DNA of 64,000 nt, taken from positions 124,001-188,000 of the forward strand of contig OZ237765.1 of assembly GCA_965178125.1 (NCBI GenBank), given 5' to 3'. The notes under the pieces were generated by a model. That model searched no databases and was not told the DNA's origin. It saw only the letters and a program-made list of their open reading frames with translations. The translations under genes were made by a program, and so were the position numbers. Of this stretch, positions 3,423-56,979 are shown piece after piece; the first letter of the stretch is position 1, and the number at the start of each line of letters is the position of its first letter. Source of the DNA: Bilabrum cf. latius. Its lineage: Eukaryota.

Positions 3423-3998
3423 TGGCTGGCTGGCTGGCTGGCCACCCATCTATCTCCTCCCTTGCTGTGCTCGTCATCGTATGTGGTTGTAGCCTGTGTA
3501 TGCGCACGCAACTGAGCTAATACCAGACGGCCGCCAGGCGTGGCAACTCGCTCAAGCCGACCCGGATACCGGCGCCAAAAGTTGAAGGACTTTCGGTAGG
3601 TTTGTTGTGAGGGATTATTTCAATACGTCATTTACGGACCGCGTGTAGCATTCCACTGACGGCCATCGAGGCAGACGTGGCAGGTGCGAGCTGCGAAGTG
3701 CGCTAGCCGGCGACCCCTCCGACTCACCCGGTGGGCCAGCTCAAACCAAACTACTGAGGGTACTACTAGGTGGATGTGCTTTATCCACCGCCACCAAGTG
3801 CAATATTCATGGAATTCATTTTTGACCGTTCGGCACCAGGCCCCAACAATTTTTGGGGGCACAGGATCTGTGACCCCCCTCCCCCTTCCCCTCCCCCACT
3901 GAGGGGTCTGTCTGCTCGTGAGAGCTTGTCTCCACCCGACTCGCACAAACCTCTGGAAGAGGTACACCGCCGGTCGTATCAACCTCAAATTTGCAGAA

Positions 3999-15864: not shown

Positions 15865-17100
15865 ATGGCATCATTACGAACGACCCTTGCGTATTAATTT
15901 GACGGCATTACCGACGAAAGCCCCTCACCGTTGCATGCTGAACCGTTGGACTGCACGGGCACGCCGAGCGGTACTGAGACCTGAGGACCAGCTGCTTGAA
16001 TAGCACTCCACACATCTATACCAACTGCCTGATCTGTACATGTGTATGCAAGGATGATGCACATGGAGAGAGCCCTCATCGGAAATAATGTGCGCATGGT
16101 CATGACAGTCGATCCTAGCCTCTCAAAATCAAGCGAATTGCGATGTCCTACAAGAACGTATCATTAATAAATCAACACTCGGCATTTTAACTGCCTGTGA
16201 TGCATGTTTCGAGAGTATTAGCTTAATTCAACAATCAGGTGAACGAACGTTCTACCCCTCAACTGGTCGCATTTTTAGTACGTGGTCGCACTACAGGTTA
16301 AGCATAATGGATCCCGGGAGCGTGCGCTTGCACGCGTGCCTCGAACTACACGCAGCATCTGCGCCATGGCGCCTGCCGAGTTGGCAGAGCTGGCATGTAG
16401 CATGCAGCAACCAGACCAGACCGTGGCCAAGCCGACTTGGCTAGCAATCATCATGCAGGCTAGGTCTTCCATCTGCACTCGCCGATTCACCGGCGCCTAG
16501 CTTTTCCTAGGCCCTTGCAACCACCCTGGCCATAGCACACATAGATGCACCCCGCAAGACACGCGCGCCCTGACCCTCAAGGGTACGTACCCACCGCCGT
16601 TAATCCACGCCGGATGAGTCCTGAGGGTACCTGACCATCAGGTTGGGGGCCCGAGGGAACAAGTGCTGGGCAGGGTCGAGCCTGACCCCTGCCAGCAATC
16701 ACTGCTCCCAGGCGCCGGATATACCAATTGCGCCTCGAAAAGGGAATCATTCAGACACCGAGTGGGACGTCAGAGGGAAGGGCGATGACGATGAGTAGGG
16801 ACCGGACGGCCGGCGGTGGAGGCACCGGAGGAGATTCGCAGGACCACTAGCTGGGCGGCTAGAGGGTCAGCCGGCTGCCACACGGAGTTGGTGAGAAGTG
16901 AAGGGGCGGGAGTAGTAGGCTGGGATAGTGCGTCTGGTTGGGGGAGACTGGGCCGAGTGAGCCCAGGATGCCTCTTTCAAGGTTCGTAGCGAACGTGCGC
17001 CGAACCCATCAGATCCACCGGTTGCTGTTGCCGCAACCCCGGGACATTGAGCTCCCATCGCTTCGATCCAATGCTTTATTTTGGTTTCTATACGCATTAA

Positions 17101-20100: not shown

Positions 20101-23100
20101 GCAGCGCTGGCACTCGTGTACTGGCCCCAGCTGTCCCCCGCGGTGGAGCGCGTCAGGATCGGGCCCAGGGGCGTGTTACTGCAGATGTCGCAGGGTGAGG
20201 GAGCCGAGACCGGGGGCCACACGCAGGACGCTGCAGGAGGGCTGGATGCACTGCACGCAAGGGGTCGCCCCAGCACGGCTGCAAAGGAGGGGGGCAAGCA
20301 GGAGGAGCAGGAGCAGGAGCATGACCGAAAATGGCCCAGGGGAGTGCGGCTGCTGCCCCCCGTCACTGGCACCGGGGGACCCGCTGGCCCCGCCCATGGT
20401 GGGGACAACCCCCCCGATATTGGGGTCCACGAAGAGGCTCCAGAGCCTGCAGATGTGTACTGGATGCCTGGGGAACACGGGCTTGTGCGGTACGCCCTGA
20501 CCCTTCCCCCCGACCTGCGGGCCGATGCAGGGGGGGTGTTTGACCCGCAAGGCGCGCTGGCCGGGAGCCAGCAGCTGCAGAGTCTTGGTCTGCTGGAGAA
20601 TGCCGAGGAGGATCCTCAACATGGAGACATCCTAGACATGGAGGGGAAGAGGCGGGGTGGAACGGGGAATGCCAGTGCTGACGGTGTAGGTGGTAAGACA
20701 GGTGGCAGCGGGCCGGTGCTCGGTTCGGGCATGCCGCTGCTGATGGGTGAGGGAACAACGGACCCTGTGGACGAGGACATTGCTGTGCTGGCCCTCCGTA
20801 CCAACCAGAGGGCGCCGACCCCCTCCAAGACCCTCCCGCGCAAGCTGCTGAGGCTAGCCAGGGAGTCAGAGGCGAGGCGGGTGGCGGGCTTGCTGGGGGA
20901 GGAAGGTGAGCAGCGGAGCGGCGATGAAGGAGTCACAGGGGGGGGCTATGGGGGGAGTGAGCGGCGGCGGCTGGTGGGTGCAGTCCATGGTAGTGCAGGT
21001 GCCAAGGACAATGCTCGCGCCGGTGCTGTCCATTCGGGGACACACCTGTTGTCACAGGCGGTGCGAGCATCGAAAAGCGCGAGACCAGGGCAGGCAGCTC
21101 CACCAGTCAGAGAACAAAACCAGGGCAAGCTAGTCCATGACGGGTGGAGCTACCTCCCCGTGCCCGTCACGCTTCCCTTCGACTGCGGGGACCTGCACGC
21201 TCACCAAGGCAGTGGCAGTGCGATGCACTCCACTGGGGGCCCTGGTGCCGATGCTGAACTAGACAAGTCGCAGCGCAGGCAGCTGATGGGGCGCCTGGCC
21301 AGACGAGGCTCGGTGGTTGCGGCTCCAGATGATCAGGACGGGACCAACACTCTTCACAGAGTGACCAACACTCTCGGAGTGTCCCTGGAGCAGGCCGTTG
21401 TTCCCTCGGTGGTGGGCGCCCAGGATGCGTGGTTCCTGCACGTGCATGCCGTGGCACGGTCGCAGGGGCAGTCGCTGGGTAGGCAGCAGCCAGGGCTGCT
21501 CCCACCCGGCGCGGCGCTGCGGTCCGCCCGCACTTCCGACCTGACGTCAGTTCCGCTGCTCATGTACGGCGAGGTGGCGGCTCTGGCTGGTTCAGTGGGA
21601 GTGAGGCAGGCGGGCTGGTTCGGGGCATCCAGGCGCAGGGGAAGGGCGGGTGGGGTCGGCAGTGCTGGCGCTGCCAGGAGTGGTGGCTTGGGCGGACAAG
21701 CTGATGGAATTGCTGCGATGCGCTTGTCCCTGCCTTCCTCATTTTCCTCCTCCTCCTCTAAGGGCACCTAGAGCAGAGGCAAGAAGCGGCGGGCGGGAGC
21801 TGCCAGCAGCACGGATCCCTCGTGGTCCAGGCACCGGTGCCCTATGTGCGGCGCTTGGCAGAGGAGGGAACACCTGCCCTTCGAGTCCACGGTGAAGCGA
21901 CTGCGGGATACTGCCACCGCACTCGTCAGGCGGCTGCCTGCCCACATGCTGTGGTCGGTTCCAGAGGCCGTTTGGAGGGTGCTTGCAGATGCATAGAGCG
22001 GGGCACCCGTGTCCTTTCGACTGCTCCAAGGGGGGGTAGAGGGGGGAGGGATCGACTCGCTCGGTGGTCTGGAGCCGCAGGAAATTCGGAGGGTGCTTGC
22101 ACCAGCTGTGCTCGCATCGGCGTGGGCCTGTGACTCGGGATTTGACCGCGTGCCGTCAGATAGGCTAGGGGCGTTCTATTGCGGGAATCGGACCCGGGCG
22201 GACCAGCAGCAGACTCGAGCCGCTTCTACTGGTATCATGTTTGACGGGCGTGGGTCCTTTTTGGGAGAGAACAACGCTCTGGCGGATCCGCTAGATACCG
22301 CGACGACTGTCGATGGCCAGCACCCGCGCCAGCACGCGGGCCATGCAGGCATGGAGACAAAGGCTGGAGAAGAGGACGGGGGCGGTGCAAGGACGCCGAT
22401 GGCGAGCACAGTGTCTGGCATGCTGCGGCGCTCGCTGAGCAGCCGCCGCAGGATCTCAAGTATAAGTTCGGCTGCCATCGCCAGGCAGGGCAGCAGCCGC
22501 AGCATGGGGAGTGAGCTGGGCCAGGGCATGGACGCGGCCCGGAGAACAGTGCGATCGGGTGAATCCCCGCACGGGCCGCGCCCCCGTGCATTGATATCGA
22601 CGGCAGCGGAGAGCGTGGGCGACGACGAAAAAGGAGATCCTTTCGATGCTGCGGCGGGGCTGGATGGTCCAGGTGGCAGCCCCGTCGGCCTCGGTGGAGG
22701 CAAGAGATTAGATTCCGGGTACTGGACCGGAGGCGGTCGTAAGGGTGGAGGTATGGGTGGCAGTGGCGGCAGACGGCCCGTCACTGTGGCCGGATCTGTG
22801 GGTGCCGGTGCGCTGGGGGGCGACAGAGCGGCCCAGCTGAAGCAGACCAGTCACATCCGATCGCAGACGGTGCGCGTGTGTGCCCTGTGCGCCGAGTTGC
22901 AGCTCCGGATGGAAAGACTCGCGGCCACCGCGCTGGAGACGATCGAGCTCGTGGGGTTTCTGTCCGTGTCCCCCCCGGGGCCTCATGCCGCCCAACGGAC
23001 ATATTTAGCCCGGCAAACCGACGCGCCTGCATCTGCAGAGCAGGCACAGGCACAGGCACAGGCACAGGAGTATGAGATTGATGCAGCTCTCGAGTTGGAC

Positions 23101-24622
23101 GAGTTGTCCATGTGCGGGGCATCGGCCTTGCTTGCCACGGCTGGTGGACTAGTCCGAACCTTTGACGACAGCATCGCAGCCGACGTGTCCTCCAGGGTAT
23201 CTCGCCGTGCCAAGTCCTCGTGGCTCGCCCTGGCGGCGTCATCCCATGGCGTGGGCTCGCTTGGGTTTCTTCAGCAGAAAAGAAGGCGGCAAGATGCCGG
23301 CCTTCCCTCGCAGGCAGAGGTGGGAATGGTGCTTGCGGCGGGCAGGAGACGGTCCCTCGCAGGGAGCATCGAGGGCGCGATGGGCATGCCTGGGGGGTTG
23401 GGGCAGGCCGCCCAGGGGATCGGAGCTCTGTTCGGCGGCGCCATGATGCTGTCCGCGGCAGGCGCGGGAGGTCAAGGGGGCGCCGCGCAGTTCCAGGGGC
23501 GTGTTCCGCCGCAGCCCCACCGCCGAGCTTCTGTGTCAGGCACGGAGCACGAGGAGCACAGGAGACCTAGGTTGAAGCGGAAGCTGTCCATGTCCCTTGG
23601 ACTGGCGCTGGACCTGCCCAGGGATCACATGGCGCAATTGCATGGAGTCGAACACCATGAGCACGGTGAAACGCACGGTGGTGCGCACAGCGCCGGCCCC
23701 CAGATGGGCCCATTGGTACCGCCGGCCCCTGGCAGGCGCCGACTCCCCGCCCTCGTGCCTCCAAATGGACCCCCGACGGATGGCTCCACGAGTGGCCAGT
23801 CCCTCCATCCCCATGGTGAGGACTAGTCACACAGGTGGCAGTAGACCCAAGGGCACCTGCGAGCAACCAGGACCGCAAGAGGCTCGCCGCTGCCACCACC
23901 CATCCAAGCAAACCAGAGGTCTTGGACCGCCCCTCAACAGCCCGCACCTTCTGCTTCCCAGGGATCTGCCACCACCGCCGGTGATTCCATCGTTCCAAGT
24001 ACAGCTTCAAGAAAGAGTGGCCCCCGGGGGTCCAGCACGCGCGACATGCGTCGGAGCCGGAGCACGATCGGCCAGCGGGGGTTCTGGCGAGGGCTCGCAT
24101 GGTCCAAGGCAGGACGAGGGGGCGCCTCTGTTCTAGGCGCCCTCGCTCTATCCCGCCCCAAGGAGCGGTTCAGAGAGATGAGGGAGAGGATGGGGGCGGA
24201 TGCAGGGCCTGGGGTCAGGCGGGGGAGCAAGCAGGGTGGCCTGCAGCTGGGGCCTGCAGGTGGTGGCAGAGGGCCAGACAGCGCGGGGCCATTCAGTGGT
24301 ACTTCTGGTCCGCGGCGTGGGTCCGTGTCCGGAGAGGCATTGGTGGGCAAGGGCAAGGCCGTTGCTAGCGGTGGCAATGCAGGAGTGGGGAGTGGCGGAA
24401 CGCCGCAGTTTCCAGAGGCCGTGTGCGCGGCTCGCCTGCTGGTGGGCCTCAATCGGCTTGACGTGGACCCGCTGGGGTGGCAGGGGATCCGCCGGGTGTG
24501 CAAGCAATGGCTGGCGGCGCAGATGCATGGGCGGGGGCATGGGCATGATGCGCATCAGCATCAAGGGGCCCATGGAGCGCATGGTGGCCTGAAGGGGTCA
24601 TAGGGTATACGAGCAGCTGAAG

Positions 24623-24676
<54 letters not shown>

Positions 24677-27600
24677 ATAGCAGTTATCATGAGTTGAAAG
24701 TTGCGCAGGGCAATGATTCCCGTGCAGGGGGTGTGGCTCAGAGCCCCATGGTGACCCGCCGCACTCTTGATGTGGTGACTCGCCGCACCCCTCTAAAGCC
24801 TCCAGCGCACAGGCTAGGCACGGTCATCAGGCCAGTGCGGCTTCAACCCCCGCCTAGTTAGGGGAAGCAATCGTCTGCGGAAGCTAGACAAACGGTGGGC
24901 AAGCGATCCAAAGGAAAGAAGAGAGGCAATGTGGGGTCAGGGAGCCGGCCGAGAGAACGACGAGCGGACCTGGGCATGGCTGTTGGGGAGGAGGCAAGCG
25001 GTGCAGCAAACGTGGACGACTTGCTATTCGGGACGATCCCGCAAGGAGATGAGCTGCAGGCGATGGGTGCAGCCCATGGTAGTGCAAGCAGGAGGGCCGG
25101 CAAGCGCCGCAAGAAGCGCCGCAAGAGGGCAAAGCAGCACGAGCGCCAGCACGATAGGCGTCTGTCAGCCGCCGGCAGCTCCTTCCCTGTGTCTACCTCC
25201 GGGTCGCGAAGAACACTTGAGGCCGGTCCAGATGAACCTATGCCTCCCAGCACCGAGCATGTATCTTCAAGGCAAATTAACCCGCCCTCGAACGTCCCAA
25301 CTGACCCCGAGCTAGACGTCTCAAGTGCCTCGCCCAGGCAGCCATTGGCAAGCAGCAGCAGGCGCAGCAGCAGGCGCAAGGACCGTACCTCGAGTGGGTC
25401 ACAGCATTCGCTCCACCACCACCCCTGTGCCCCGACAGACAACATTAGCTCCCCTTCACAGTCCACAGCAGCTGGCACGTTCACCGCGTCCACATCAAGC
25501 ACAACCGTGGAGCTCACCGATGTGAGGCTCTGGCTCAGGGTACGGCTGCTGGGCGGGTCAGCGTGGGTGCCTCTGTCTTAGACCACTCCCAGCGACGAGC
25601 GGGCGGCCTTACAAACCGGAACTGGTGCCAGGAGAGACCCCCCTGCGCCGCACTCGCCCATGCAGCCCCGCAGAAGGCACGATGGGGCCAGCATCGGGGC
25701 CCGCAGGAGCCAGCTCACCCCGGATGCTCTCACGTTTAGACCCACGGGACCCTCCCCCTTGCGCTGGATTCTGCCCATGGTGGCCGCGCTGGGGAACAAA
25801 CAGGTGGGTGTGACGAGCGAGGGAGGGGGCGGCGCCCATCCGCTGCCCGCATGCCTGCTGCCGTTCCTGTCCGAGAGGGCCGCGGTGCTGCGGTCCAGCG
25901 GGGCATGGTCCTTTGTTGGGAGACAGGAGGCGGCTCTTCTCAATGCAGCTGCTTCCAAGGGGAAAGCGGCCTTCTCAGGGAGCAAGGGGGTCCGGTCAAT
26001 GGGCAGGCGGGGTGCGTCGTCCTCAGCTAACGCGCGCACAGCACTCCCTGGCAAGGCCAGTGGCTCTGGGACTGGTGCTGGTGCTGGGCCTGGGCCTGCG
26101 GCAGGGTCTGTCCATGGCCCCACAAAAGTCCAAGGGATGTTGCAAGGGAGGTATCCACTCCAGGTGGAGCTGTGGGCCGCTGCAAGGGGGTTTCTGAAGC
26201 GACACCCAAAGGCTGGGGCACAGAGCGCTGCAAAGCGGCTGGGGCCCAGGTCCAGGGCAAGGGCAAAACCGGTGGAAGGGAGCCGTTCGGCTGCACGCCG
26301 CGTGGGATTTGCGCCTGAGCCGTGGAAAAATGCAGGCAAGATCCAGGTCGTGAAACAAGCTTCCCCTTAGTCTTCGACTTCCCGGTCATCCGCACTGACC
26401 CCAAGCGAGGTGCATCCCATGCTGCGGGGGGTCCTGCGAGGAGCCACTGGGTCTCGATCCCGGGACCTGGCCTCCGGAACGGTCCAGTCCGACAGTCAAA
26501 GATCCAGCAACAGGCCTAAACTTGATGTCTTGTCGTCGGATGTCGACGGTGGGATGCACAGCAGCAGTATTACCAGCACAAAACTCCAGCGGCAGCATCC
26601 TCGTGGCAGCCAAGTACCCCAGGGCACTGACGGCAGCACAAGGGTGAGGATGATGACCCGCGATGAGCCAGGGAACAATGAAGATCCCCAGTAGCAGTTC
26701 AGTCTGTCCCACGATCGGCTGCAGGCGGCTCAGGAGAGGGGTCGAGCGCTGGCGCGGACCCAGACCGAGGCGCACATCGCGAGCCTGAGGGCGGGGAGCA
26801 TGGGTGCACTGCACGGCGGTGCTTCCTCGGGGGCTGGGTCCAGCAGGCGAAGGAGACCGTCCATGAAGCTGCTGGGCGTAGACGCAACGCTGGTGGAAGA
26901 CGACGACGATGATGAAAGCTGTGCCAGTGGTGGCGCCAGGCCTCTAGGTGAGCATGCCAGTGGTGGCGATGGGACTGCGAGCAGCGCTCGAGAGGGCAGC
27001 GATGAGGAGTACTCAACGGATAGTTCCCAGGGGTACTCATCCCCTAAAAGCGAGGAAGAGGAGGAAGAAGAGGAAGATTGCGCTGATAACTCCAACTCCG
27101 CCTCAGCCTCGCCGTCGCACGCGGTGCCACGGGACTAGGCCCAGGCCAAGACAAAGACAAAGTCCGCGGTTGCAACCAGCATCGAGGATCTGGAGCTGCC
27201 GCGCCCCGCAACCAGCAGTGATGATGTGACGAGTGGTACTAGTTCCGGCTCTCTGCCCCCCTCGCTGTTGTCCACGAGTGTGTGCCTGGGCGCCCTCCCC
27301 CTGCCCTTGCGTCAGTTCGAGGGGGGGCAGCTGTCCACGGCCCGGGTCACGTCGGAGCTGCAGGTGCAGGTGCAGGGGCAGGTGCAGGGGTAGAGGTAGT
27401 CGGGGGTGGAGAGTGGCGGTCCGTCGAGCCCTGGTTTGCTTCCTTCGGGGCTGGGCAGGAGCGTGAGGCTGTCCTCCACTCTGGGCATGGACGCCGGGCC
27501 CTGCCTCTCTCGGCATGCGACCGACTGGCTGGAGGTGAGGTGCAGGTATGTGAGGGTGGGGGTGCCCGAGGCGGAGGTGAGGGGGGCAGTGGGCGGGGAA

Positions 27601-27753
27601 GGGGGGGATTGTGAGGGGGGGGCAGTGCCAGTGGGGGGTGTCGGTGGGGTGGCTGGGCCGGCCGGCGAGGGCGTTTGGCTGCCCACTGGTCGGGCTGCGG
27701 CGGCTTTCCTCAACTCGCTGCAGGCGCTTCCACCGGACTGGCTGCAGCAGTGA
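17101..27753 (+). CDS. Giant intronless low-complexity protein (about 3550 aa with TAG=Gln), unknown function, possible C2-like and CxxC segments
   Basis: Twelve plus-strand track ORFs from 17101..17655 to 27406..27753 share one frame, separated only by 18 TAGs (gaps read manually, no TAA/TGA). Terminates at TGA TGA TGA (27751-27759). Confidence 0.75.
24628..24675 (+). repeat. (GCT)n trinucleotide tract encoding poly-Ala inside the giant ORF
   Basis: Direct reading; in frame with 17101-27753. Confidence 0.85.
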
Positions 27754-31067: not shown

Positions 31068-34000
31068 ATGGCTGCTGTTGCCGGAGCTTCCACGGAAAAG
31101 CCTCTCAACGTGATTGAGAAGATCCTTTTGCACCATGCTGTCGGTTTGCAATCTAAAGCCATCAAGCCGGGCGACGTGCTTTGCGTCAAAGTGAGAGCGC
31201 GATCCATCGGTGGCCTCGATACCCTTCTTGGCAGATACAGAGCATATGAAGAACGAGTAGATCGACAATTCAACTTAGAATTGCATATAGATATCATAAG
31301 GTGCAAGAATATGCACTGAACTACCCTGAATCAGGTTGTCGCTGCAACGCAACACATTTCTCACCGAGCGCCATGCTCTGCGTGTCGCAGGTGGACTGGA
31401 CCATGGCGAACGAGATTACCTGGAAGGGGATGCGCATGCTTTGGCGTCGCCTTGGAGAGCCCAAACCGGCAAACCGTGAGTAGCATTCTTCAGTCGCTCT
31501 TGGCACATATCAGACGTTGATGCTGGCGCCCCGATCCAAGCACAAGCGAGTTTACACTCGCATTCTGCATCGCACCGAATCCAACATTCCGTGGCAGCCC
31601 CTCTTTGCTCTCTGCAGCCGAGCGCGTGTGGCTGTCGGTGGACCACTCGACGGACCCTCGCATCAACCACGAGCCCAAGCCGCTCGAGCTCACCAAGCTG
31701 GTGACCCAGTTCGCCAGGGAACACAAGATCGTGGACTTCTTCCCCCCTAACACCTCCATTATGCACACCGAGTTCGCCCGCCAGCGCTCCCAACCCGGCC
31801 AGATTGTCATCGGGGCCGATTCCCACACGTGCTCCGGGGGCGGCATGGGGGCGTTCGCCGTGGGCCTCGGGGCGGGGGACGTGGTGCTCCCACTCGTCAC
31901 AGGGCGCACCTGGTTCCGCGTCCCCGAGACGATCCGCATCGAGCTCAAGGGCAGGCCCGCTTTCGGCATCAGCGGGAAAGACGTCATGCTGCACATCTTG
32001 GGCAAGCTCAAGCGCAACACCGTGGCCCTCGGGAGGGCGGTCGAGTATGGCGGGCCCGGGATGAAGTACCTCTCCTGCGACGCGAGATTCGCGCTGGCGA
32101 ACATGGCCACGGAGTTCGGGGCTCTCGCGGGCGTATGCGTGGCCGACGCCGTGACGGCAGCCGCCCTGGCCAAGCGGGAGAGGGTGGGCAAGGCCTTCGA
32201 CCAAGCCGCCAAAGGGTGCGGCTGCAGCCAGGCAGCGCCCGAGGTCGTGGGCGACGACGCCGAGCGAATGGACTCGGAGACGAAAGCCAAGGCCGAGGCC
32301 GCCATGGCCGAGGTGGTCCAGGGAACAACACCGGGATCCGGAGCCGCAAAGGCGGGGGACATCGAGGCGGATGGGGCCGCGTCCGTGACGGCCCGCGCCC
32401 CCTCCTCCTCGGCTGCCGCGCACACGTCAGAGGCGTTGTACTTCCAGCCGGATGACGAGTGCGAGTACGCGGGTGTGTACGAGATCGACCTGGGCGAGGT
32501 GTCCCCCGCGGTGGCGCGGTACCCAGACCCCGACAACTGCGTGCCGGTGAACGACCCTGCCGTCAAGGGCAAGCCCCTGGACGGCTGCTTCATCGGGGCG
32601 TGCACCACGGCTCAGGAAGAGCTGGTCCTTGCCGCGCTGGTGCTGGAGCAGGCCCTCAGGCAGGGCCGCAAGCCAGCGGTTGCAACCGCCACGGGGATGG
32701 GGAAGGCCCCGCAGCGGAGGGTCACCCCAGGGTCTGTCTAGATCTACGAGACTCTCGAGAGGCACGGCCTGCTGGACGTGTACCGCAGGGCGGGCTTTAC
32801 CGTGGGTTCGCCCGGGTGCTCCTTCTGCCTGGGGATCGCCGCTGACGTGGCACAGGAGGGCGAGATCTGGCTGTCCTCGCAAAACCGGAACTTCAAGGAC
32901 AGGATGGGCCGGGGGTCCATCGGGTCCCTGGCCTCTGCCGCGACGGTGGCGGCCAGCAGCTTGGGCATGGCGGTGGAGGACCCCACCCCTTTTCTGAAGG
33001 GGATCGATCCCGAGCGTTTCGAGGCGCTGCGGGGGGAGCTGAGGGTGGGACCCCCGGGAGGGGTCAGGGCCCTGCGCCCCCTGGTGGGGGCGGGGATTGG
33101 AGTGCGGGCTGGTCGCGCAGCTGTGACGATTGAGTACGACGCGGAAGGCCCCGCGGTGCCGAAGGAAGACCCAGCAGGCGCGGGGGCTGCTGCTGCTGCT
33201 GCTGCAGGGGGCAAAGAGGCGGAGGAAGAAGGTGAGGCGAAAGAAGAACAAGTAGAGGGAGAAGCAGGGGCGGCGGAGGGGGCCTCGGATGCAGTTGGGC
33301 TCTTGGCCCCCGAGGCACCACGGGACGATGCACTCGTCACATGGACCGAGCCGCAGCCCGAGCTCGCGACGGGGGCAGGAGGAGGTGCCTCCGCTGCCGA
33401 TGATGATGCGGCAGCAGCGGCCGATGGGGGCGAGCCGCCCGTCATCGGCCCTCACCTGCCCACGTCGGTCAAGGGAGCGGTGCAGCGTTTCGGGGCGCAC
33501 GTGGACACGGACGCGATCATTCCCGGACCTTTCCTGGCATGTTCCGCGGAAGACCGCGTCAAGCACGGGGAGAGGGCCGACATGACCGAGGACGAGTTTC
33601 TGGGGGCCAAGTGCTTCGCGTACGCGCGGCCCGAGTTCAGGGGCAGGGTCAAGGAGGGCCGCACGGTGGTGGTGGCGGGGGAGGGCTTCGGCAGCGGGAG
33701 CAGCCGAGAGGAGGCGGTGAGGGCGCTGAGGGCCGCGGGGGTGGGCGCGGTGGTGGCCCGGTCCTTCGCGTTCATCTACGGGCGGAACCAGCCGAACAAC
33801 AACCTGCTGGGCGTGACGGTGTCCTCGGATCGGTTCTACGAGCTGGCCCAGGAGGGATCCACCGTGGAGGTGGACGTGCCCAACCGGCAGGTGACCGTGT
33901 GGCCGTCCTCCTCGTCGTCGGGTGAGGGCGGCAGCGCTGGGGAGGGCGCAACGGAATCGTTTCCTTTCGAGCTTAGTCTTGTTGAGGAGCGATTTCTTCA

Positions 34001-36674: not shown

Positions 36675-37976
36675 TCACGCGCCCCCCCTCGCGTGCTTCT
36701 GTAGCGTGGCAAGGATCTCGTAATACGCGGGCTTCTTCTGGAACTTCTCGTCGAAGGGCAGCGCGCTCGCTGTCTCCCCCCTCCAGCTCACTAGCGACGT
36801 GAAGCCCCATGTCTCGTATGACCGGAAGACGTCCGTACCCGCCTGCAGCGCGGCCTCGAGCAGCTGCCCGTAGATCATGGCCTGCTTCTCGAACTCCTCC
36901 TTGGTCTGTTCCTGCACGGACACGTCCAGCTCGGTGATGTGCACCTTGAGTCCCAGGGCGCCGAGCCTCTTGATGTTCTCGCCGACAGAGGTGAAGTTGG
37001 GGTAGTGAGACGTCGTGAAGTGGCACTGCAGGCCCACCCCGTCCACCCTCACGCCCTTGTCCTTGAAACCCTGCACCATCTTGTACACCCTGTCCGACTT
37101 GGCGTTCACCTCCTCGGCCGAGTAGTCGTTGTAGAAGAGGGGGATCTGCTTGGTGGTGGAAGAAGCCGTCTGGAAGGCCAGCTACACGTAGTCATCCACT
37201 GCAGCAATAGCGAGAAAACGCAAAATGAAGGGAAAGAAGGAAAATGACATGCAAGTAAATCGTAGTTGGAGAGCTGCTCCAGAGGGCACGCATGGGTCGA
37301 GTGCGTGCAACTCACGTGCAGGGTACCACGGGTCAGCCTTCTTGAAGATGGACTGCCCGGGCTTGAAGGCCCCCCCATCCGCGATGGCCTCGTTCACCAC
37401 GTCGACTGCCACCACCTTGCCCCCGCCCGCGTGCCTGTCCTGGGCGTCGTACCTAGACACGACCTTGGTCACGTGATCCTCCAAGATCGCCTGCAGCTTG
37501 GAGGGAGAGAAGCCGCCCCCCGTCAGCCACTTGGGGTTGTACACCCCCCACACCATGTTGTGCAGGCGGAATACTCCGTCGGCGCTGTCCGCGCCCTTGG
37601 CAGTGCTGACGTTGAAAATCTGGTCGCAGCCGTCGTATGTGTACGAGCCCTCGTTCGGCTCTGTCGGGCCGAACTTGCACGAGTTCTCTGCCGTGGCTAG
37701 GTCGTACTCTGTGGTAAATACCTGGCGGTACTGCTCCTTTTGCGCCCCAGTGGTGATGTAATTGTGGTTAACCGCGGCACCGACGTAGATCCCGGCGGCC
37801 TTTGCCGCTTCTCGCAGCGTCTACGAAGCATCGACGCCGAACTTTTTGTAGTTCAGCTCGGACGCAGGCGGCAAGGGAGCTGGATTCGGGTAATGCTGCG
37901 CGATTTCTTCCTCGGATAGATGCCGCCCAAACGCAGCCGCAGTAAGGGCAGTTGCAGTGAGGATCTTTGATAGCAT
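36675..37976 (-). CDS. Secreted glycoside hydrolase family 10 (endo-1,4-beta-xylanase-like), exons 37976-37316 and 37198-36675, about 394 aa
   Basis: Signal peptide MLSKILTATALTAAAFG. GH10 motifs ENSCKF, RLHNMVW, VDVVNEAI (acid/base Glu), LFYNDY, VDGVGLQCH and ITELDV (nucleophile Glu). 117-nt GT-AG intron; TAG at 37821 and 37182; TGA stop. Confidence 0.9.
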
Positions 37977-38279
37977 TCTGCGGCGTTCATTTAGGGATGG
38001 CTTGCAACAGCGCGATGCGGTTGGGTCGAGAACAAAAAATAACCAGGGTGCAATCTAGACGAGATGAGCCACTGAGTGTGCCTCACTTGTCCACGAAGAA
38101 AGAGGTGATGACGCTTTCCGGATCGATCAGGCAAATCGAAGGTTCGTGATGACGCTTTCCGGAATGGCTGCCAAGTGCAACTACAGAGATTGCTGCGACC
38201 ACGGCGGTACAACAACTCTAAAAAATCACCGTGGGAATGGGGGCTACGCATGAGTAGTGGCTAGTCCGACGTGGCGGCG

Positions 38280-46918: not shown

Positions 46919-47964
46919 TCACTGCCTCCCCCCCTCCTGCCCCCCCTCAAACCTCCTGTCCTGCTCCTGCACCGCCGCCTCCATCGCGTCCTCCTCCTCC
47001 AGCCGCATCCGGCTCTCCACCAGCCGCCCATCGTCGTCCACAAGCGCGCGGACGTCCTCAGGCAGCGCCTCGAGGCCCCTCTGCAGCCGGGCCTTCTCCA
47101 CATCCTTCTCCGCCTTCTTTTGCAGCGCGAACTTGCCTCTCCGCATGGCGGTGTTGAGCTCGCTGCGGGTCGGGCGCAGTGCCCAAGGGTGGTCCGAGGG
47201 AACCTTCATCTTGCGGCCGAACCTCTTGATCGTGACCAGGTCGCCCACCAATCGGCTCCGGATCCCCGTGCGGCCCTGGGACTTCCACGCGTGCGGCTTC
47301 TCCTGCGGCTTGATCAGGCTGGCCGCCTCGGGCTCCTTGGCCGGCTGCAGCGCGCTGGGGTAATCGGCCGCGTCCTGCCGCACGCGGTCCAGGGTCCGGA
47401 AGGCCCTCTGGCGCTCGCCCAGGACCACCTTAATGCGAGACATGGTGCGCTTGACCAACGACCATCGGCGCATGTCCGGGCCCGCCAGCCGCTTTTGCTT
47501 GAAGTAGAGGCGCTCGGTGGCGAGCATGTCGCGCTCGCGAAGGCACACGAACCAGAGCTTGTGCAGGTCTTCCAAGGACTTTTGGCGCAGCTCGGAAGCA
47601 AGCCACGGTCTTCCTACGGACACATAATTCTGGTGTTGGCAATCACATAGTGATGGGGCAGACTTGCACTGGAACGACGCGAGGTCAAGCACGGGAGCTT
47701 CCTCAGGGACATAAAGGAAATCAACCGCAACCATTCGGTGATTTTCTGGTAGAAAAACGAGCATGACAACTTACCAGCAATCTATCTCTGCGTACCATCT
47801 TCCCGCATCTCGTATGATGGGCCAAAGAACTCATCAAAGCCCGCCATTGCCGGTGCTGATGTCGAGACCGCTCTGGCAGGCGTGCTTGCCGAGCAAGTGC
47901 GAGTTCCAGCCTTTACTATGGACACTATTACATTTCGAGCTACTGCTGGAAGCCTCAACGACAT
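46919..47964 (-). CDS. MRPL47: Mitochondrial ribosomal protein uL29m/L47 (exons 47964-47775, 47613-46919; about 294 aa)
   Basis: Presequence-like N-terminus [18 protein letters not shown] motif in exon 1; [31 protein letters not shown] in exon 2. TAG at 47782 lies just before the GTAAGT donor. Confidence 0.88.
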
Positions 47965-48101
47965 CGTACAAGCTGCGTTATGGGGCGAAAAGCGCAGCCT
48001 GCGGCGAACGCGCTCGTCATCCCAACTCGCCGCTTGCACTTTGCCAGTGTTCGAACTGTTGCGCAGCTTATACCCGGGTCTGGTGCATACTAGGGGTAAT
48101 C
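47965..48101. promoter_or_regulatory. Probable bidirectional promoter between divergent MRPL47 and TOP6A (137 bp)
   Basis: Head-to-head ATGs at 47964 and 48102; inferred from gene arrangement only. Confidence 0.45.
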
Positions 48102-50216
48102 ATGCCGGTCTTAAAGTCTCCAAAGAAGAAACGTCGTCTGGTCCGGCGCTCGGCTGATGCGGATGCCTTGGCCTCGATAGAGTCGGGCGGTTCGAACGGA
48201 TCGGGACGAGGTGGTGGATTCTCGGATGTTGAAGACAGCGACGGGGAGACCAGAGCAAGCATGGCATCTGTACCGATGCAAGTATCGCAATCATCCCTAG
48301 GATCTGTACGAGGATCGCAATCAAGGCGTGCAGCTGCTCGGAACGTGCGCTCGTACAAGGAGGTCGCTTCCGACGCCAGCAGCAACAGCGAACAAGAAAG
48401 CGAAGGTGCCTCGGGCAGCGCATCCGACGCTTCCGCATCAATTAGCGAAGACGAAACATCGGACGACGACACAACGCTCGGCGAGGTGCTCGCGAGCAGC
48501 CGAGCCGCTCCTCTCTCCTCCCCCTCCTCTGCAGCAGCAGGCGCTGCCAGTGGCAGCCGAAGCAAAACGAAAGCCGCGTCGGCCAGGGCGGGCCGGAAGC
48601 GGCCCAGGGACGAAATCGGCAGGGGCATCGCTTCATCGCCAGCATCGAGCAGCAAGGTCAAGCCATCGAAGCGAGCACCGAGCAAGTCGGCCGGCGCAAA
48701 GCCCAAGTCCAAACCCAAGCCCAAGGGTGGCAGGGGCGGGGGCAAGCGCTCCTCGGTGCCGGCCGTATCGCCAGCTATCGCCATGAGGGCGGTTCTCGCC
48801 CTGAGGGACCGTCTCAGGGAACACGTGATGACTGTGGCCAGGGCGGAGGATGCGAGGAGGAGCAAGGCAAGCAAGGGCAAGGGCAAGGGGAAGGGCAAGG
48901 GGAAAGAGGGCGGCAGCGGGGCAGCCACGGGCGGGGCAGCAGCAGCCGCATCTTCGTCGTCGTCATCATCGTTGGCGTCTACGTCATCCTCATCTTCATC
49001 TTCATCTTCATCTTCATCTTCATCTTCATCTTCATCTTCATCTTCATCTCTGGCGGGGCCTCCACCGGCCTCCGAGGTTGCCTCCCTCGCGGCTGCCTCT
49101 CGCTCGCAGGCCGTGCTTGCCTCGCTCGGGATCGAGGGGGTGAGGGAGGTGGCCGACTTGGGCACGGGGACGGTCCTGGGCCGGCTGGAGGACATTTTCG
49201 CTGACGTGGCGGCAAGTATCCTGTCGGGGGAGGCCTTCGCTTACAGAGTGCCGAATCGCGGTGCCGGCAACCAGCTGTACGTGCCTCAAATCGATCGGAT
49301 TGTGCTGAAGGATAAGGCCACGGCCCGGCCCTTCCTTGGCCTGGGTACGGTCCGGAAGACCACGATCATGACCCGGGTCATGCAGATGATCCACGAGGTG
49401 GTGCACCGGGGCATCCACACCACCAAGCGCGACCTCTTCTACGCCGATGTGAAGCTCTTCAAGTCCCAGGACGAGTCCAATGCCGTGCTGGACGACGTGG
49501 CGTGCATGGTGGGCTGCACCCGCACCTCGCTGCACGTGGTCGCCTCTGAGAAAGGCGTGGTGGTGGGCAGGCTCCAGTTCCAGGAGGACGGGGACGAGAT
49601 CGATTGCAGCCGCATGGGCGTGGGAGGCAAGGCCATCCCCCCGTTCGCCGACAAGATAACGAACCTTCGCTCGGACGCCGCGTTCATCCTGCTGGTGGAG
49701 AAGGACGCGGCCTTCATGCGACTGGCAGAGGACCGGTTCTACAACAAGTACCCCTGCATCATCATTACGGCCAAGGGCCAGCCAGACGTGGCGACTCGGC
49801 TGTTCCTCAGGCGGTGCCGGGACGATCTTCGGATCCCCGTGCTGGGGCTGGTGGACGCGGACCCTTACGGTCTCAAGATCCTGTCCGTGTACATGTCCGG
49901 GAGCAAGAACATGAGCTACGACAGCGCGAGCCTGACGACGCCCGACATCAAGTGGCTCGGTGTGCGTCCGTCCGATTTGGACAAGTTTGACATCCCGGAG
50001 CAGTGCCGCCTCAAGATGACCGACACTGACATCAAGACCGGGAAGGACCTGCTGAAGGAGGCCTTCATCGCCAAGAACGAAGACTGGATGGCAGAGCTCA
50101 GAACCATGCTCGCCACAAAGGAAAAGGCAGAGATTCAGTCGCTATCGTCGTACGGATTCCAGTACTTGACGCAGGAATACCTGCCGCGCAAGCTCGCCGA
50201 GGGTGATTGGGTGTGA
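48102..50216 (+). CDS. TOP6A: DNA topoisomerase VI subunit A (SPO11-3 type), about 704 aa with Ser-rich N-terminal extension
   Basis: [26 protein letters not shown] (catalytic Tyr), [52 protein letters not shown] and KAEIQSL; TGA stop. Confidence 0.93.
48985..49049 (+). repeat. (TCATCT)n hexanucleotide tract encoding poly-Ser in TOP6A
   Basis: Direct reading. Confidence 0.85.
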
Positions 50217-50344
50217 CGAGTGCGGCTGCCGCTGCAGCAAGATGGTTCTTAATCCGAGCATCGCCGAGCCATCCAACACATTTCTGAGCAAAAAACCGAA
50301 GAAAACAAGCAATCTCGCATACATCAGTGCAAATAAGTGATACA

Positions 50345-52388
50345 ATGCAAGAAGAACACCACGAACATGTCGGTATTGAGGAGGCGTTCGCCGGCCCTTC
50401 GGGTTCTGAGGCCGTATTCGACGACCATGCAATAGCTCAGGCTGCTCACACCGGGGCGTGGGCGATTCCAGACGAAGCTAGACGATTAGCAGCCGGAGGA
50501 ATCAGCGGAATCGCAGAAGTTATCACAACGCATCCTATCGACTTAGGTGAGACGGTGATTTAGACTATGGATGCGTGATGAGGTGGCAGAAACTTGGCGC
50601 CGTATTCGATTTGCCTTGCTCCGCCTGCTTTTTACGCGTGTTTGGTTGCCAATTGTAGGATATTGTGGTAATAAAGTTTTGTTTGGTAGTATTTGTGTGG
50701 TTGTGCAGTGTATGCTGTGGCTGCTGTTGCCAGCAGGGCCCCGGAGATGCTTGAAGGCGCGTTGCAGCCGATCCCGGGTGTCCACGTGGGAATGCTAGCT
50801 TGCGCGGCATTCGCGCCAGTAACTTGGGTATTTGGCCCAACCAGTGTGATTCGCATGCATGGTTCATTCATATATGCGTGATGGGTAGGCGAGTACGTGT
50901 CGAATGGCTGAGATGAAGCCGCACTTGCAGTTGGTGCGACCGGCTGTTGCAGTTCGACCGTCTTGCAGTTGACGCTGCAGCGGGTCATGCCTTGGAAAAG
51001 CTTGCCTCACAAGCCGCCGTATGCCTGTAGATTGTGACATATAAGGATGCACCGCGAGGAAGGGCGGGTCAACATGCACGCAGGCTCCACGGTTGGCTGG
51101 AAAGCCCCACGTGACGCGCTGCGCCGGGCGCGGTGCCAAGTGTCCGGTAGCACACCAGTAAGCCGCTCATACGCATGAATCCGCGCACGTAGATGACGGT
51201 AGGCTGCAAAATATAATACTCCAATGTATGTACCTATACTGCTGGCGATTAGAACAGAGTTCGCTGCTGTGGGTTGCGACTCAGCCTGACTTGAGGGCCG
51301 GCTGACTTCCACCCGACAGGCCAGCGACTCGCTCCCGAGTGGCTGGTCGGCCGGTTCCGGCATGTGTGTACGCGGCATGAACGTGGCTTGACTTCCTTTG
51401 GGTTCAGCCACGTGTTGATATGGGTTGGTTTTGCATTGGAAATCAGCGTAGATTGCTCGTCGCGTGTCGTGCAGTGTTTCGCGCTTGTCGCCACACATCT
51501 GGCGTTGCCACACCCCCGCCCCCCCGTTCCATCACCATTTCTGTGCTTGCTATCGCAGTCAAGACACGCATGTAGCAGGCCTACGAGCTGGGGCGCCCTG
51601 CAGGCCCCGCCCCCGTGATCAGGGAGGCCATCGCCAGGGGCGGGCTTGCCGAGCTGTACGCGGGCTTCGTGCCCAGGCTGCTCGGCGTGGTGCCCATGCG
51701 CGTCACTTTCTGGGGCACGCAGAGCATCACCAAGCATAGGCTGGACGAGAATTTCCCGCACGTGCACCAGCTGGCCCGTGTGCTCGCCACGGGCACCATT
51801 GCGGGCACTGCCCAGACAGTCATCGACGGCCCCATCGAGGCGATGAAGATCCGGGCCATGACCTCGGGCAAGAGCGTGTCGCTGTGGGAAGTGATCAAGG
51901 GAGGAAGATTGCCGGGGTTTTCGGCAACGCTCGCGAGAAACGTGGTGTTTGCGGGCGCCTTCGCAACGGGCTTGTACATGGGCGCAGACGACTCTGCGCT
52001 TGATTAGGCCATGATCCGGGGGGCGGGGGCGGGCCTGGTGGCTTCCATCGTGTCGCAGCCCCTGGACTTCGTCAAGACGATTGCTCAGATGGAGGGCGGG
52101 CGCTCGCAGCCCATGCTGCGGGTGCTGACCCAGACCCCCCTGAAGACGCTCATGTCGGGCTGGATTCCCCGGGCTGCGCTTGGCATGGTGTCCATGTCTG
52201 TGGGGGCTGTGGTGTTCCGGGCGGTGGAGAACTTCCTCATCTCCGGCGCGCTCTTCACCAAGTGCCAGGACACCGCGCTGCAGCACCCCGCATCTGCGCA
52301 CACGGCACAGCGGCAGCTTGACTTGAAGAGGGTGCAGCACGCGAGGAGGCGAGCGGACGAGGCTGTGGCGGGGGAGGGCAGGCAGTGA
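50345..52388 (+). CDS. Mitochondrial carrier (SLC25) protein (exons 50345-50546, 51559-52388; about 343 aa)
   Basis: Three carrier signatures: THPIDL/VKTRM(TAG)Q across the intron, GPIEAMKIR and QPLDFVKT. TAG at 51573 and 52005; TGA stop. Confidence 0.9.
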
Positions 52389-52965
52389 GCAGGTGTGTGT
52401 GCTTCAGGGGGGAGGGAGGGGCGGCCCCATTCGGCAGACGGATGAGCAAGAGGGTTGAATGGAAACAGGACAGCGGGACAGTAGTGATGGCTTCGCAGCC
52501 GCACAGTGGAAGCGCGTGCGAGGGAAAGAAGGCGGCGGCATGGCTGGCGGCAGCGGGCGCGGTGCTCTGGTACAGAGACGCGCCCGGTGACCGCGGCCGT
52601 GTCCGTCGTTTCCCTCGCTGCTTCAAATCCTCGTCCATAAGGTATCAATGGAGCAGTATGCGGGGGGCATACGCATCAGGCCGAATGGGGGCAAGTAAGG
52701 AGGTTGTTGCTAGTTGAGTGTTGCGTGATTCGTGCAGATTTGAACGCTTCCGTGAAGTGCCGTGACAGCGTATCGTTCACGATCCGCGCCCTGAATTCAT
52801 TTGCATGGATACTGTCGAATAGATGCGTCCAAGTTAAGCTGCATTCGGTTGGGTTCAGCGGCAACAAGTTACGCAGGGCTGCGCCCAGGCCTACCTCTCC
52901 GCCTCCCACCAGCGAACCCACATGCGTGCGGCTTTCACGGTCCTAGCAACCCAGTCCCAGCCTAT

Positions 52966-53661
<696 letters not shown>

Positions 53662-53844
53662 GCTTGCAGTATTATTTTGTCTTACGCTCAGCATTCGAGC
53701 TGGTGGTTCGATGATCGGATTACACTCGTCATATGCACTGATGTCCATTTCCTGGACCCCCATTGCAACTTCCTTTCGGTTTGCCGCGAGTTTTAGCCCG
53801 CGATAGCATGAAAGAAATTATATACAGTTGAATCATTTGCGAGT

Positions 53845-55657
53845 ATGCGAAGAAACCGCGTAGTTCAAAGATGCATACGGACACTTGCAGTGCAATTGCG
53901 TGTTCGATTCCAGCAATACGGGATGAGGTGGGCAACCACACATCCTAGCGTTGATGTTGTTGTCATTGGAGGTGGACATGCTGGATGTGAGGCGGCGGCT
54001 GCTTCTGCACGCGCAGGGGCAAACACGGTGCTCCTTACGCAAACTGCCGAGCAGGTGGGCGAGCTCAGCTGCAACCCGTCCATCGGGGGCGTAGGCAAAG
54101 GCACTCTTGTCCGTGAGGTTTCCGCCATGGGAGGCATCATGAGCCGCGCCGCAGACGAGGCCGGCATCCTGTTTCGCATGCTGAACCGCAGCAGGGGCCC
54201 GGCCGTGCACGGCCCGAGGGCCCAGGTCGACAGAGCCCTCTACAAGGCCGCGGTGCATCGCATGGTGTTGCAGGAGACCCCTAACCTGCAGCTGCACGAG
54301 GGCCTGGCACAGGATGTGGTCATCTCCCAGGCCAGCGGGCGAGTGACGGCTGTGCTCACCGAGGCGGGCGACGTGCTGCCCTGCAGGGCCGTGGTGCTCA
54401 CCACTGGGACATTCCTGAGGGGCGTGATCCACGTGGGGGACAGGCAGATCCCCGCGGGGAGGAGAAAGAGGTCCAGGGCGGAACTGGAAGCGGACGGAGA
54501 CGGCTGCAACCCGAAATCAATAACCGCCGCCCCAGGGCGCGGGGTGCGGCTAGACGACGAGGCGGAGGCGGAGAAGGAGAAGGATATCGACCTGGCGGAG
54601 CCCCCGAGCGAGGGATTGGCGCTGACGCTGGAGCGAATGCAGCTGCCTCTGGGACGACTGAAAACCGGCACCCCTCCCCGCCTGGACGGCCGCACCATCA
54701 ACTGGGAGTGTCCAGGGCTGGAGGCGCAGAGCACCGACGAGCAGCCGTGGGTGTTCGATTACCGCCGGGAATACGCGGGCGAGCTTCCCCCCGTGGTGGC
54801 GAGGGGGGAGACCATCCGGTGCATGGCCACGAGGACGAACGCCAGAACGCATGCCATCGTGTCGGAGAACAGGCTGAGGCTACCTACATTCGTGGGGGGG
54901 GGTCCGCAGGGGGAGGGCAAGGGGCCGAGGAACTGCCCCTCGATCGAGTCCAAGGTCAGGAAGTTCCCCGACAGGGAACAACACCTCGTCTGGCTGGAGC
55001 CCGAGGGGATTCGGAGCCACATTGTGTACCCCGCAGGCATCTCCACGGGCCTACCCGAGGACGCCCAGCTCAGGATGGTCCGGTCCATCCGTGGGCTGGA
55101 AGAGGCCGAGATGGTCGCACCGGCCTATGCCGTGGAATACGACCACGTGGACCCCAGGTGCCTCGACCCTACCCTGCAGCTCAAGGGGGGCGGGGCCACG
55201 GGGCTCGCGCGGTCCGGATCCACTTCCGGTTTGGGGCCGGGCTCCGGTTCTGGTTCCGGTTTCTTCCTGGCCGGTTAGATCAACGGCACCACTGGGTACG
55301 AAGAGGCCGCGGCCCAGGGGCTGGTGGCCGGTGCCAACGCCGCCCTTCTGTCGCTGGGCAAGCCCCCCATGGTGCTGGACAGGACCCGGAGCCTGACAGG
55401 TGTGATGATTGACGACCTCACCAGCAGGGGGGTGGCCGAGCCGTACCGCATGTACACTGGCAGATCCGAGTACAGGCTATCGGTAAGGGCAGACAATGCT
55501 GACCTGAGGCTGACCCCGGCGGCGTGCGAGGCGGGGCTGCTGCGGCGGGAGGGGCTGAGGAACAGCGGGGGTGCGGTGCATTATTTTGCCTGGCCTGACG
55601 TCACTGCGGAGCTGCCTCCGCTGGATTGCCAAGACGAGCACGGCGAGGAGCACCTCT

Positions 55658-55688
<31 letters not shown>

Positions 55689-56979
55689 ACATTAGCAGCA
55701 GCAGCAGCACCAGCAGGAACATCAGCAGCAGCAGCCCACGACAGAGGGAGGTGGAGGCGCCAAGGCTGCACCATTTCTGGGCGACCGCCCCGACTGGGCC
55801 GATGCTGTGGTGCTAGAGACAAGGCAAGATAGGGCCGCCGCAGGGCGTGACGAGTGGCTGGCGAGGGCTGGCGAGGACCAGTGGAGGGGGTTCCGACGGC
55901 GGGCGAGGCGCGTTGAGATGGCGGGGTAGGCTCTTCGGGAGGCTGTCCTAAGGCCGGGGGAGTGGGGAACAAAGGGAGTCCAGGGAATAACCGAGGATAT
56001 CGGTCGCGGTGCTAAGACGGGGAACAAGCCGGGGAACAAGCCCAGGGCGGTGAGCGAGCTGCTTCAGGCAGGCGTGGTGAGTACTGGGGAGGACGCAGCG
56101 GGGCTCATGCAGCGGGCTGCTCTGGGCCGACTGCAAGAGGCAAGGCAGCTCCTGAAAGACGCGATGAGCGTGTATTTCGGGGGGGACTGTGTGACGAACA
56201 GGTAGGCGTGGGTGGAGCAGAAAGCTGCAGGGGCTCTGTCTGGCCTATTGCAGCGCGGGGAAGACAGCATCTTCGACGGTAAGGAACATGTGACGAGTGC
56301 TTGGGCCAGGGAACAGATGGACGGCTCCCGGTCGGGCGGCGAAGATGGCGAAGTGGACCAGCGGGACAGGTCCTTGCCCTGGTCGGCTGCCCTGCGAGGT
56401 GTATTCGGGGCCGGCCTGCAGCCAGACATAGAGCGGGCGGCCGGGCTGATCCAGGGGGCGGCGGAGCTGTGCGACCACGTCAGTGCGGCGGGTCACCATG
56501 CGGCTAGAACCACCGCTGGGGTGGAAGCGAGGTACTCGTCACACGTGCAGCGGCAGGCGCGGGAGGTGGGACGTGTGACGAGGGCGGGGCGTCTGCCCCT
56601 TCCTCAGTGGGTGACGAGTGCGTGGCTGGCCGTGCCGGGGATTCCCCGCGCCGACGCAGAGGCCCTGCAGTCTGCCGGTGTGACGAGTGTGGGGGAGGCG
56701 GGGCGGGTGCCCGGGGTGCGCCCGTCCACCGTGTCGCTGCTGGCGGCGCTGGCCTCGGGCGAGGCAGCCACTGCCAGGCCCGGGGTCGCAAGTGGGGGTG
56801 ACGGTGCATCGCATGGTGGTGCAAGAAGTGGGGGTGTGGATAGGCAGGGAACAGGTCTAGAGGAATAGGCTCGCACAGCTGCCGTCGCTGATGCTGGCAG
56901 TGGTAGTACCCAGCCTGAGGGTGTGACCGCCGGAATCAGCGCCAGGCAGCGGAGGCGGTTGAAAGCTGCACAGACCTAA
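53845..56979 (+). CDS. MTO1: Mitochondrial tRNA U34 modification enzyme MTO1/GidA (MnmG), about 1044 aa with TAG=Gln
   Basis: [68 protein letters not shown](TAG)[40 protein letters not shown] and C-terminal [16 protein letters not shown]. Six TAGs; TAA stop at 56977. Confidence 0.93.

Follow-up and report, generated by a model that had tools for sequence, protein, structure and literature searches.

Nuclear genetic codes in which UAG alone has been reassigned to glutamine are described from a fornicate (Iotanema spirale), from a ciliate (Protocruzia tuzeti) and from two lineages of phyllopharyngean ciliates, and the same sources list UAG as a leucine codon in a rhizarian and as a serine codon in Scotinosphaera (PMC5304391, PMC11687900). 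Glutamine at both UAA and UAG (UAR, NCBI translation table 6) is listed there for many ciliates, for Dasycladales and other ulvophytes, and for Hexamita, Streblomastix and Amoeboaphelidium (PMC5304391, PMC11687900). Changes confined to UAG are rare, since the two codons UAA and UAG tend to be reassigned jointly, and every independent instance is useful for testing the mechanism of stop-codon capture, be it near-cognate reading by tRNA-Gln, a change in the release factor eRF1 or GC pressure. Here we analysed a 64,000-nt stretch of contig OZ237765.1 (Bilabrum cf. latius, contig positions 124,001 to 188,000; hereafter the window), centring on a mitochondrial-carrier gene at 50345-52388 on the + strand that contains two in-frame TAG codons. 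The window very probably represents nuclear DNA of a GC-rich eukaryote, likely a stramenopile near the bicosoecid Cafeteria, that reads UAG as glutamine and retains UAA and UGA as stops (NCBI table 15).

The carrier gene and its conserved glutamine

The carrier gene is split by a spliceosomal intron that interrupts the first signature motif of its family. We compared it with the ortholog on L001, a metagenome contig of 9678 nt recovered by a scan with the neighbouring Top6A protein, and with Logan contigs from four public runs dated 2025 (X1, X2, X3 and X11) aligned to 50200-52500. The gene has the following parts.

50345..50546, + strand: carrier exon 1, from ATG to HPIDL and the G that begins a split Val codon; the L001 ortholog of this exon lies at 1633-1837.
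50547..51558, + strand: spliceosomal GT..AG intron of 1012 nt in phase 1; joint found in runs X1-X3.
51225..51227, + strand: alternative donor within the intron (tccaat/gtatgt), used with the same acceptor, 51559; joint found in X2 and X3.
51559..52388, + strand: carrier exon 2, from tc/aag to TGA at 52386-52388; 275 residues when TAG is translated as Q.
51573..51575, + strand: TAG at the Q brace of helix 1 (PIDLVKTRM-TAG-Q); a Gln column in relatives, CAA in L001.
52005..52007, + strand: second in-frame carrier TAG (SALD-TAG-AMIRG); the L001 codon is CAG, and its context is identical.

The frame of exon 1 runs from the ATG at 50345 (MQEEHH...GGISGIAEVITTHPIDL) to the codons cat cct atc gac tta and leaves a lone G at 50546, directly followed by gtgaga. 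The intron closes with ctatcgcag, its AG at 51557-51558, and exon 2 opens with tc aag aca cgc atg tag cag gcc. These letters are as described in a sequence-only reading of the window, which had proposed that a TAG completes the carrier signature across an intron; the second in-frame TAG, at 52005-52007, was absent from that reading. GC content is lower in exon 1 (55%) and the intron (56%) than in exon 2 (66%), with a similar trend in L001, and the aconitase-family gene (31070-31700) likewise seems to open with short, AT-richer exons.

Exon 2 matches the Pfam profile Mito_carr (PF00153) in three stretches (E 1.1e-18; 67.2 bits against a cutoff of 22.3), as expected of a three-repeat SLC25 carrier, with exon 1 contributing positions 7-28 of repeat 1. 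Residues 46-67 of exon 1 cover these positions and residues 1-61 of exon 2 cover positions 30-92, and the split codon G/TC (Val) supplies the single absent position, 29, so that the splice is seamless against the family profile and the profile runs on continuously across it. All repeats carry the signature Px[DE]xx[KR], as PIDLVK over the splice, PIEAMK and PLDFVK. In solved ADP/ATP carriers, the glutamine of the Q brace (Px[DE]xx[KR]xxxQ) hydrogen-bonds the matrix salt bridge (PMC7611774). Carriers have one to three such braces; here the position is occupied by TAG in repeat 1, by Q in repeat 3 (PLDFVKTIAQ) and by M in repeat 2.

A search of 1.84 billion representatives returned 709 relatives of the carrier at E <= 0.001, and the best 150 of the 709 were aligned to a spliced translation in which the TAGs were written as X. 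At the column of TAG 51573, 129 of these 150 relatives have Gln, one has Ile, one has His and 19 are gapped, being cut N-terminally. The conserved Gln that the sequence-only reading gave for this position of the SLC25 motif is thus borne out among the relatives and by the CAA of L001. The closest relatives are short metagenome proteins of about 210-260 aa, and a phmmer search of the carrier against PDB sequences gave no match at E <= 0.001. The protein shares with SLC25 carriers its three Mito_carr repeats, the signature motifs and Q braces on repeats 1 and 3, and differs from them in its strong divergence, in the Met at the repeat 2 brace and in its N- and C-terminal extensions. The product of 50345-52388 is therefore predicted to be a divergent three-repeat mitochondrial carrier with the SLC25 fold, and a mitochondrial location and the transport of a carrier-type substrate are presumed from its family.

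The splice itself is visible in the public runs. The joint 50546/51559, which skips 1012 bases bounded by GT..AG, occurs in contigs of X1, X2 and X3 at depths of 101, 604 and 74 (studies P1 and P2). The contigs of X11, a DNA run that is nearly identical to the window and is possibly its source, lack this joint. Depth in the X2 contigs is 964 over exon 1 and 531 over exon 2, and declines from 331 to 48 along the intron. From the splice joints and the excess of exon over intron depth, we infer that X1-X3 contain RNA. A second joint, 51225/51559 (333 bases skipped, GT..AG), appears in X2 and X3 and shares the acceptor of the main joint; this form is probably non-productive, as read-through from exon 1 meets a TGA within a few codons. 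The acceptor 51558/51559 lies upstream of the TAG in both joints, so the codon at 51573-51575 is retained in the mRNA. An acceptor at or after the TAG, through which the codon would have been lost from the message and the proposal with it, was seen in none of the joints of the run contigs over 50200-52500.

Together these data suggest a route from gene to protein. Splicing of the 1012-nt GT-AG intron, which splits the first signature motif, would generate an mRNA reading P-I-D-L-V-K-T-R-M-UAG-Q, in which UAG would be translated as the Q-brace glutamine of repeat 1. Decoding would involve a tRNA-Gln with anticodon CUA, and eRF1 would no longer recognise UAG.

Reassignment of TAG across the window and a syntenic relative

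Treating TAG alone as sense extends the longest frames of the window from 936 codons to 3551 (17101-27753, +) and 2401 (8668-15870, -). No long frame gains from TAA alone being read as sense, and TGA as sense only opens frames at random on both strands. Frame 17101-27753 contains 18 TAG, 0 TAA and 0 TGA, against 21.5, 9.6 and 40.9 expected from the window background. In the 12 usable frames (13,266 codons, the GH10 frame being left out of these totals), 59 in-frame TAG stand beside 407 CAG and 115 CAA, and TAG makes up about 10% of the presumed Gln codons. Two neighbouring genes show both where TAG falls within proteins and where TAA ends them.

53812-56979, + strand: MTO1/MnmG gene (Pfam GIDA, E 2e-124).
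55276..55278, + strand: TAG in MTO1/MnmG at a conserved Gln; Q in 120 of 120 homologues, CAG in L001.
56977..56979, + strand: TAA stop of MTO1; TGA in L001 at the same distance.
52966..52968, - strand: TAA stop of the ubiquitin-L40e fusion gene; the Pfam L40e domain ends one residue before it, and L001 has the same TAA.

The MTO1 TAG at 55276 aligns with the Q of E. coli MnmG chains, and two further MTO1 TAGs lie inside a lineage-specific poly-Q/His insertion (55650-55760, +). Two TAGs of the L001 Top6A gene also fall on Gln columns, with Q in 118/120 and 119/120 homologues. TAG is therefore found in frame in expressed genes under purifying selection and on conserved Gln columns of unrelated families (the carrier, MTO1 and L001 Top6A); the sequence-only reading had counted the carrier as a second, independent family in support of Gln, and the other proves to be MTO1/MnmG. 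On codon and alignment grounds, the carrier TAG very probably reflects a genome-wide code change rather than a gene-specific peculiarity.

The gene order Top6A, carrier, ubiquitin-L40, MTO1 is the same in L001 and the window, at 74-92% nucleotide identity. In L001, carrier exon 1 ends CAT CCA ATT GAT TTA G, the intron (1002 nt, GT..AG) has the position and phase seen in the window, and exon 2 opens TT AAA ACG CGG ATG CAA TAG GCA. The window thus reads ATG TAG CAG where L001 reads ATG CAA TAG, which places CAA at the L001 brace and TAG in the next codon. In-frame carrier TAGs number two in the window and five in L001, mostly at different sites. The carrier introns are 44% identical over aligned pairs, as against 74% for exon 2. 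A public protein that is 87% identical, P0003, is by eye a piece of an L001-type ortholog lying between two TAGs, and it has Q at the second carrier TAG (52005-52007); because it is the same ortholog as that of L001, it does not count as independent evidence. Its truncation illustrates how standard gene callers fragment the proteins of this organism, so annotation and metagenome binning of the lineage need table 15.

Codons opposite TAG were compared between the two species in the frames of Top6A, the carrier, ubiquitin-L40, MTO1 and a 208-codon frame at 57140, in which 21 TAG sites were aligned; 36 of the 57 printed rows, being non-coding frames of the same DNA, were excluded. One site lies opposite a gap. 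At the other 20, the partner is CAG or CAA 14 times, AAG twice, CAC twice, TCG once and GGC once, and this Gln share resembles the general level of amino-acid identity between the two species. One such exchange concerns ubiquitin, whose residue 28 is Gln here (ENVKQKIQ), written CAG in the window (53271, - strand) and TAG in L001 (4244). Ala or Ser occupies residue 28 in most eukaryotes.

A code in which TAG is sense without being glutamine, or without being only glutamine, was weighed against these counts; TAG might specify another residue, or be a context-dependent codon that can also terminate, on the pattern of UAA in Blastocrithidia and the stop codons in Condylostoma. The non-Gln partners in L001 fit such a code, as do the variable columns at several TAGs, and just 11 frame ends are determined. 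Nevertheless, all four near-invariant columns that contain a TAG are Gln columns (the carrier with 129 of 131 residues, MTO1 with 120/120, Top6A with 118/120 and 119/120), Gln codons supply 14 of the 20 partners, near the general identity between the species, and TAG stands at none of the 11 frame ends. We regard this alternative as very unlikely.

Several observations weigh against the assignment of TAG to glutamine and temper it. The column of TAG 52005 is variable among the best 150 of the 709 carrier relatives (N 30, E 16, Q 14), and the aconitase-family TAG, in an unconserved column, faces K or E in two archaeal chains. In the excluded non-coding rows, TAG pairs with CAG or CAA in 11 of 36 and with TAG in 9; part of the pairing therefore reflects C/T transition, and the partner count alone leaves the amino acid unfixed. 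Because TAA and TGA set the limits of the frames in the first place, their absence carries information only through frame length. No tRNA gene was detected by ARAGORN in either the window or L001, and the window has no Rfam match. The assignment is made at the level of DNA and RNA sequence, not of peptides. As to the transcripts, Logan contigs lose rare variants, such that a minority form, edited or differently spliced, could be hidden, and the RNA nature of the splice-bearing runs is a guess: their label reads 'RNA?', X2 is flagged 'probably DNA' and no run is on record as RNA.

Unlike TAG, TAA and TGA are found at gene ends. Eleven ends are determined, a small sample, and comprise 8 TGA, 3 TAA and no TAG. 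The L40e profile is matched over its full length (1-50/50) and the gene ends in PKKKLK one residue later, at TAA. The C terminus of MTO1 in L001 reads ARqRRRLAGGNA-TGA, and its window equivalent closes with TAA at equal distance. The aconitase-family frame also closes with TAA, and the 208-codon frame from 57140 is closed by TGA in the window and by TAA in L001, at equal length. Glutamine at both TAA and TAG, with TAA merely rare in a GC-rich genome, would accord with the usual joint change of UAA and UAG (PMC5304391, PMC11687900) and with TAA being the rarest of the three stop triplets in the window. However, L40e has TAA at its canonical end in the window and in L001, TAA is exchanged with TGA at two homologous ends, and DNA similarity between the window and L001 breaks off after the MTO1 TAA. 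In addition, no long frame is extended by reading TAA as sense, and 17101-27753 lacks the TAA triplets expected by chance, so that no sense use of TAA came to light in the long frames. A table 6 code is thus highly improbable. Since TAA is found at gene ends and nothing is gained by reading it as sense, the code is of the table 15 type; to the sequence-only reading we add that the reassignment, judged from these ends, appears limited to TAG, with TAA still a stop.

Under the standard code, TAG could in principle be removed from the carrier mRNA by another splice or edited to CAG. The intron does have an alternative donor, and contigs may mask minor forms. Against this, both joints place the acceptor upstream of the TAG, and with donor 50546 the acceptors tag/cag and cag/gcc would break the carrier frame. 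Exon 2 is covered by single contigs from 51557/51559 to 52409-52500 or beyond, in three runs spanning 51557-52409 or further, without variant letters and without a joint. In the majority form, as assembled, both carrier TAGs are retained through splicing and left unedited. Such removal would also have to be repeated at 59 TAGs in 12 frames, which makes it scarcely credible.

The carrier proteins of the window and L001 are 78% identical (pN 0.16; pS 0.74, saturated; dN/dS about 0.06), and the gene is accordingly under strong purifying selection in both species despite its in-frame TAGs. That it is instead a pseudogene, or is truncated at the TAG under the standard code, as its two in-frame TAGs under table 11 and the fragmentation of the ortholog by public gene callers (P0003 being the part between two TAGs) might suggest, has negligible probability given a spliced gene with deeper exon than intron coverage, this low dN/dS with conservation of the reading frame, intron position and TGA stop, and the presence of TAGs in essential conserved genes as well (MTO1, and Top6A and ubiquitin in L001).

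Other genes of the window show further features. The two longest frames, 17101-27753 (+) and 8668-15870 (-), are rich in low-complexity stretches of Ala, Gly, Ser and Gln, and no Pfam domain matches either of them at E <= 1e-5. Tandem paralogues at 3903-5678 and 6640-8418 (+) have near-identical N termini and weak B_lectin or PQQ_2-like repeats; they have TAG in common at two aligned sites, and a further TAG of the second copy (MILFxQA) aligns with a Q of the first (LILFQDG). The Top6A/Spo11 protein (47742-50216, +) carries an N-terminal extension of ~530 residues with long poly-Ser stretches ahead of its TP6A_N and Toprim domains, and its frame is free of TAG in the window and has three TAGs in L001. 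At 36678-38126 (-) lies a gene of the xylanase family GH10 (Pfam E 1.5e-70) with an apparent intron, whose in-frame TAGs occupy unconserved positions. In NCBIfam, the aconitase-family protein fell outside fungal homoaconitase.

Lineage and giant-virus relatives

The best named matches of MTO1 are oomycetes (50-52% identity), followed by Pseudopedinella and Ochromonas. Top6A is closest to an L001-type metagenome protein (95%) and to a record labelled Symbiodinium sp. KB8 (84%), with Cafeteria roenbergensis (81%) and Pythium (77%) among its further matches. We built a maximum-likelihood tree of Top6A from the window sequence and 24 of the 120 listed matches, namely those named to an organism plus the five top unnamed ones. 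The window pairs with the L001 type at a support of 100/99, and both then cluster with unnamed sequences, the KB8-labelled record and Cafeteria; the support for this cluster, 87/87, is too low to count as a firm branch. These protein comparisons argue with moderate confidence for a stramenopile, probably near the bicosoecids. An affiliation with green algae or with the aphelid Amoeboaphelidium was dropped, as the best named matches are stramenopile and the aphelid code is listed as UAR = Gln (PMC5304391). GC content is about 62% in the window; for Cafeteria, a GC content of 70% and a mitochondrial genome annotated with UGA = Trp are given (10.1101/751586). In public records, the annotated Cafeteria Top6A is a complete protein.

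Flagellates of the Cafeteria type are hosts of giant viruses, and Mimivirus encodes a carrier. A search of viral contigs with the single carrier sequence found no relatives, and an alignment-based profile scan of viral contigs found 16 carrier loci in giant-virus metagenome-assembled genomes (IMG/VR, L081-L096). Two of these viral carriers were compared with the window carrier, at 33% (E 6e-37) and 30% identity (E 5e-21). The short giant-virus carriers (about 210-260 aa) share with it the blocks VPMRxxFWGTQ, TLxRN and MSVG, and their brace position holds Q (HPLDYYKTLKQ, HPIEYFKTLKQ). In contrast, the viral loci have 19-34% GC and frames that barely lengthen when TAG is read as sense, whereas the window carrier is GC-rich, with a spliceosomal intron, TAG codons and synteny with Top6A, ubiquitin-L40 and MTO1 in two species. 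The intron, the TAG codons and the synteny conserved in both species identify the window carrier gene as cellular, and the minimal growth of frames L081-L096 with TAG as sense means that these loci provide no link to viruses using TAG as Gln. According to a giant-virus catalogue, all confirmed isolates come from standard-code hosts, and code 15 is among the codes tested (PMC13524828). If the placement near Cafeteria is true, the lineage is a candidate host for giant viruses that use TAG as Gln.

Comparison with known genetic codes

The case joins the known class of UAG = Gln code variants, and its interest lies chiefly in the lineage concerned. Our literature search found no report of a nuclear code variant in a stramenopile or bicosoecid, a result that is not proof of novelty, as subscription journals were thinly covered and supplements lay outside the search; the groups that generated the 2025 runs may well be aware of the change. 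We suggest, tentatively and at somewhat less than even probability, that this is the first nuclear genetic-code change in stramenopiles, present in a lineage near Cafeteria in at least two species (those of the window and L001), with UAG as Gln and UAA and UGA as stops.

The window resembles table 6 codes in the capture of a stop codon by Gln. It differs from them in its use of TAA, which terminates the L40e, MTO1 and aconitase-family frames and occurs within none of the long frames. Its closer likeness is to nuclear codes of the table 15 type, in which TAG alone is read as Gln, TAA and TGA terminate, and TAG is exchanged with CAG and CAA between relatives. A suppressor tRNA and eRF1 are described for some of the table 15 type taxa, and the likeness here is judged from codons. 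What sets the window apart from these systems is its host, which is stramenopile-like and GC-rich (about 62%).

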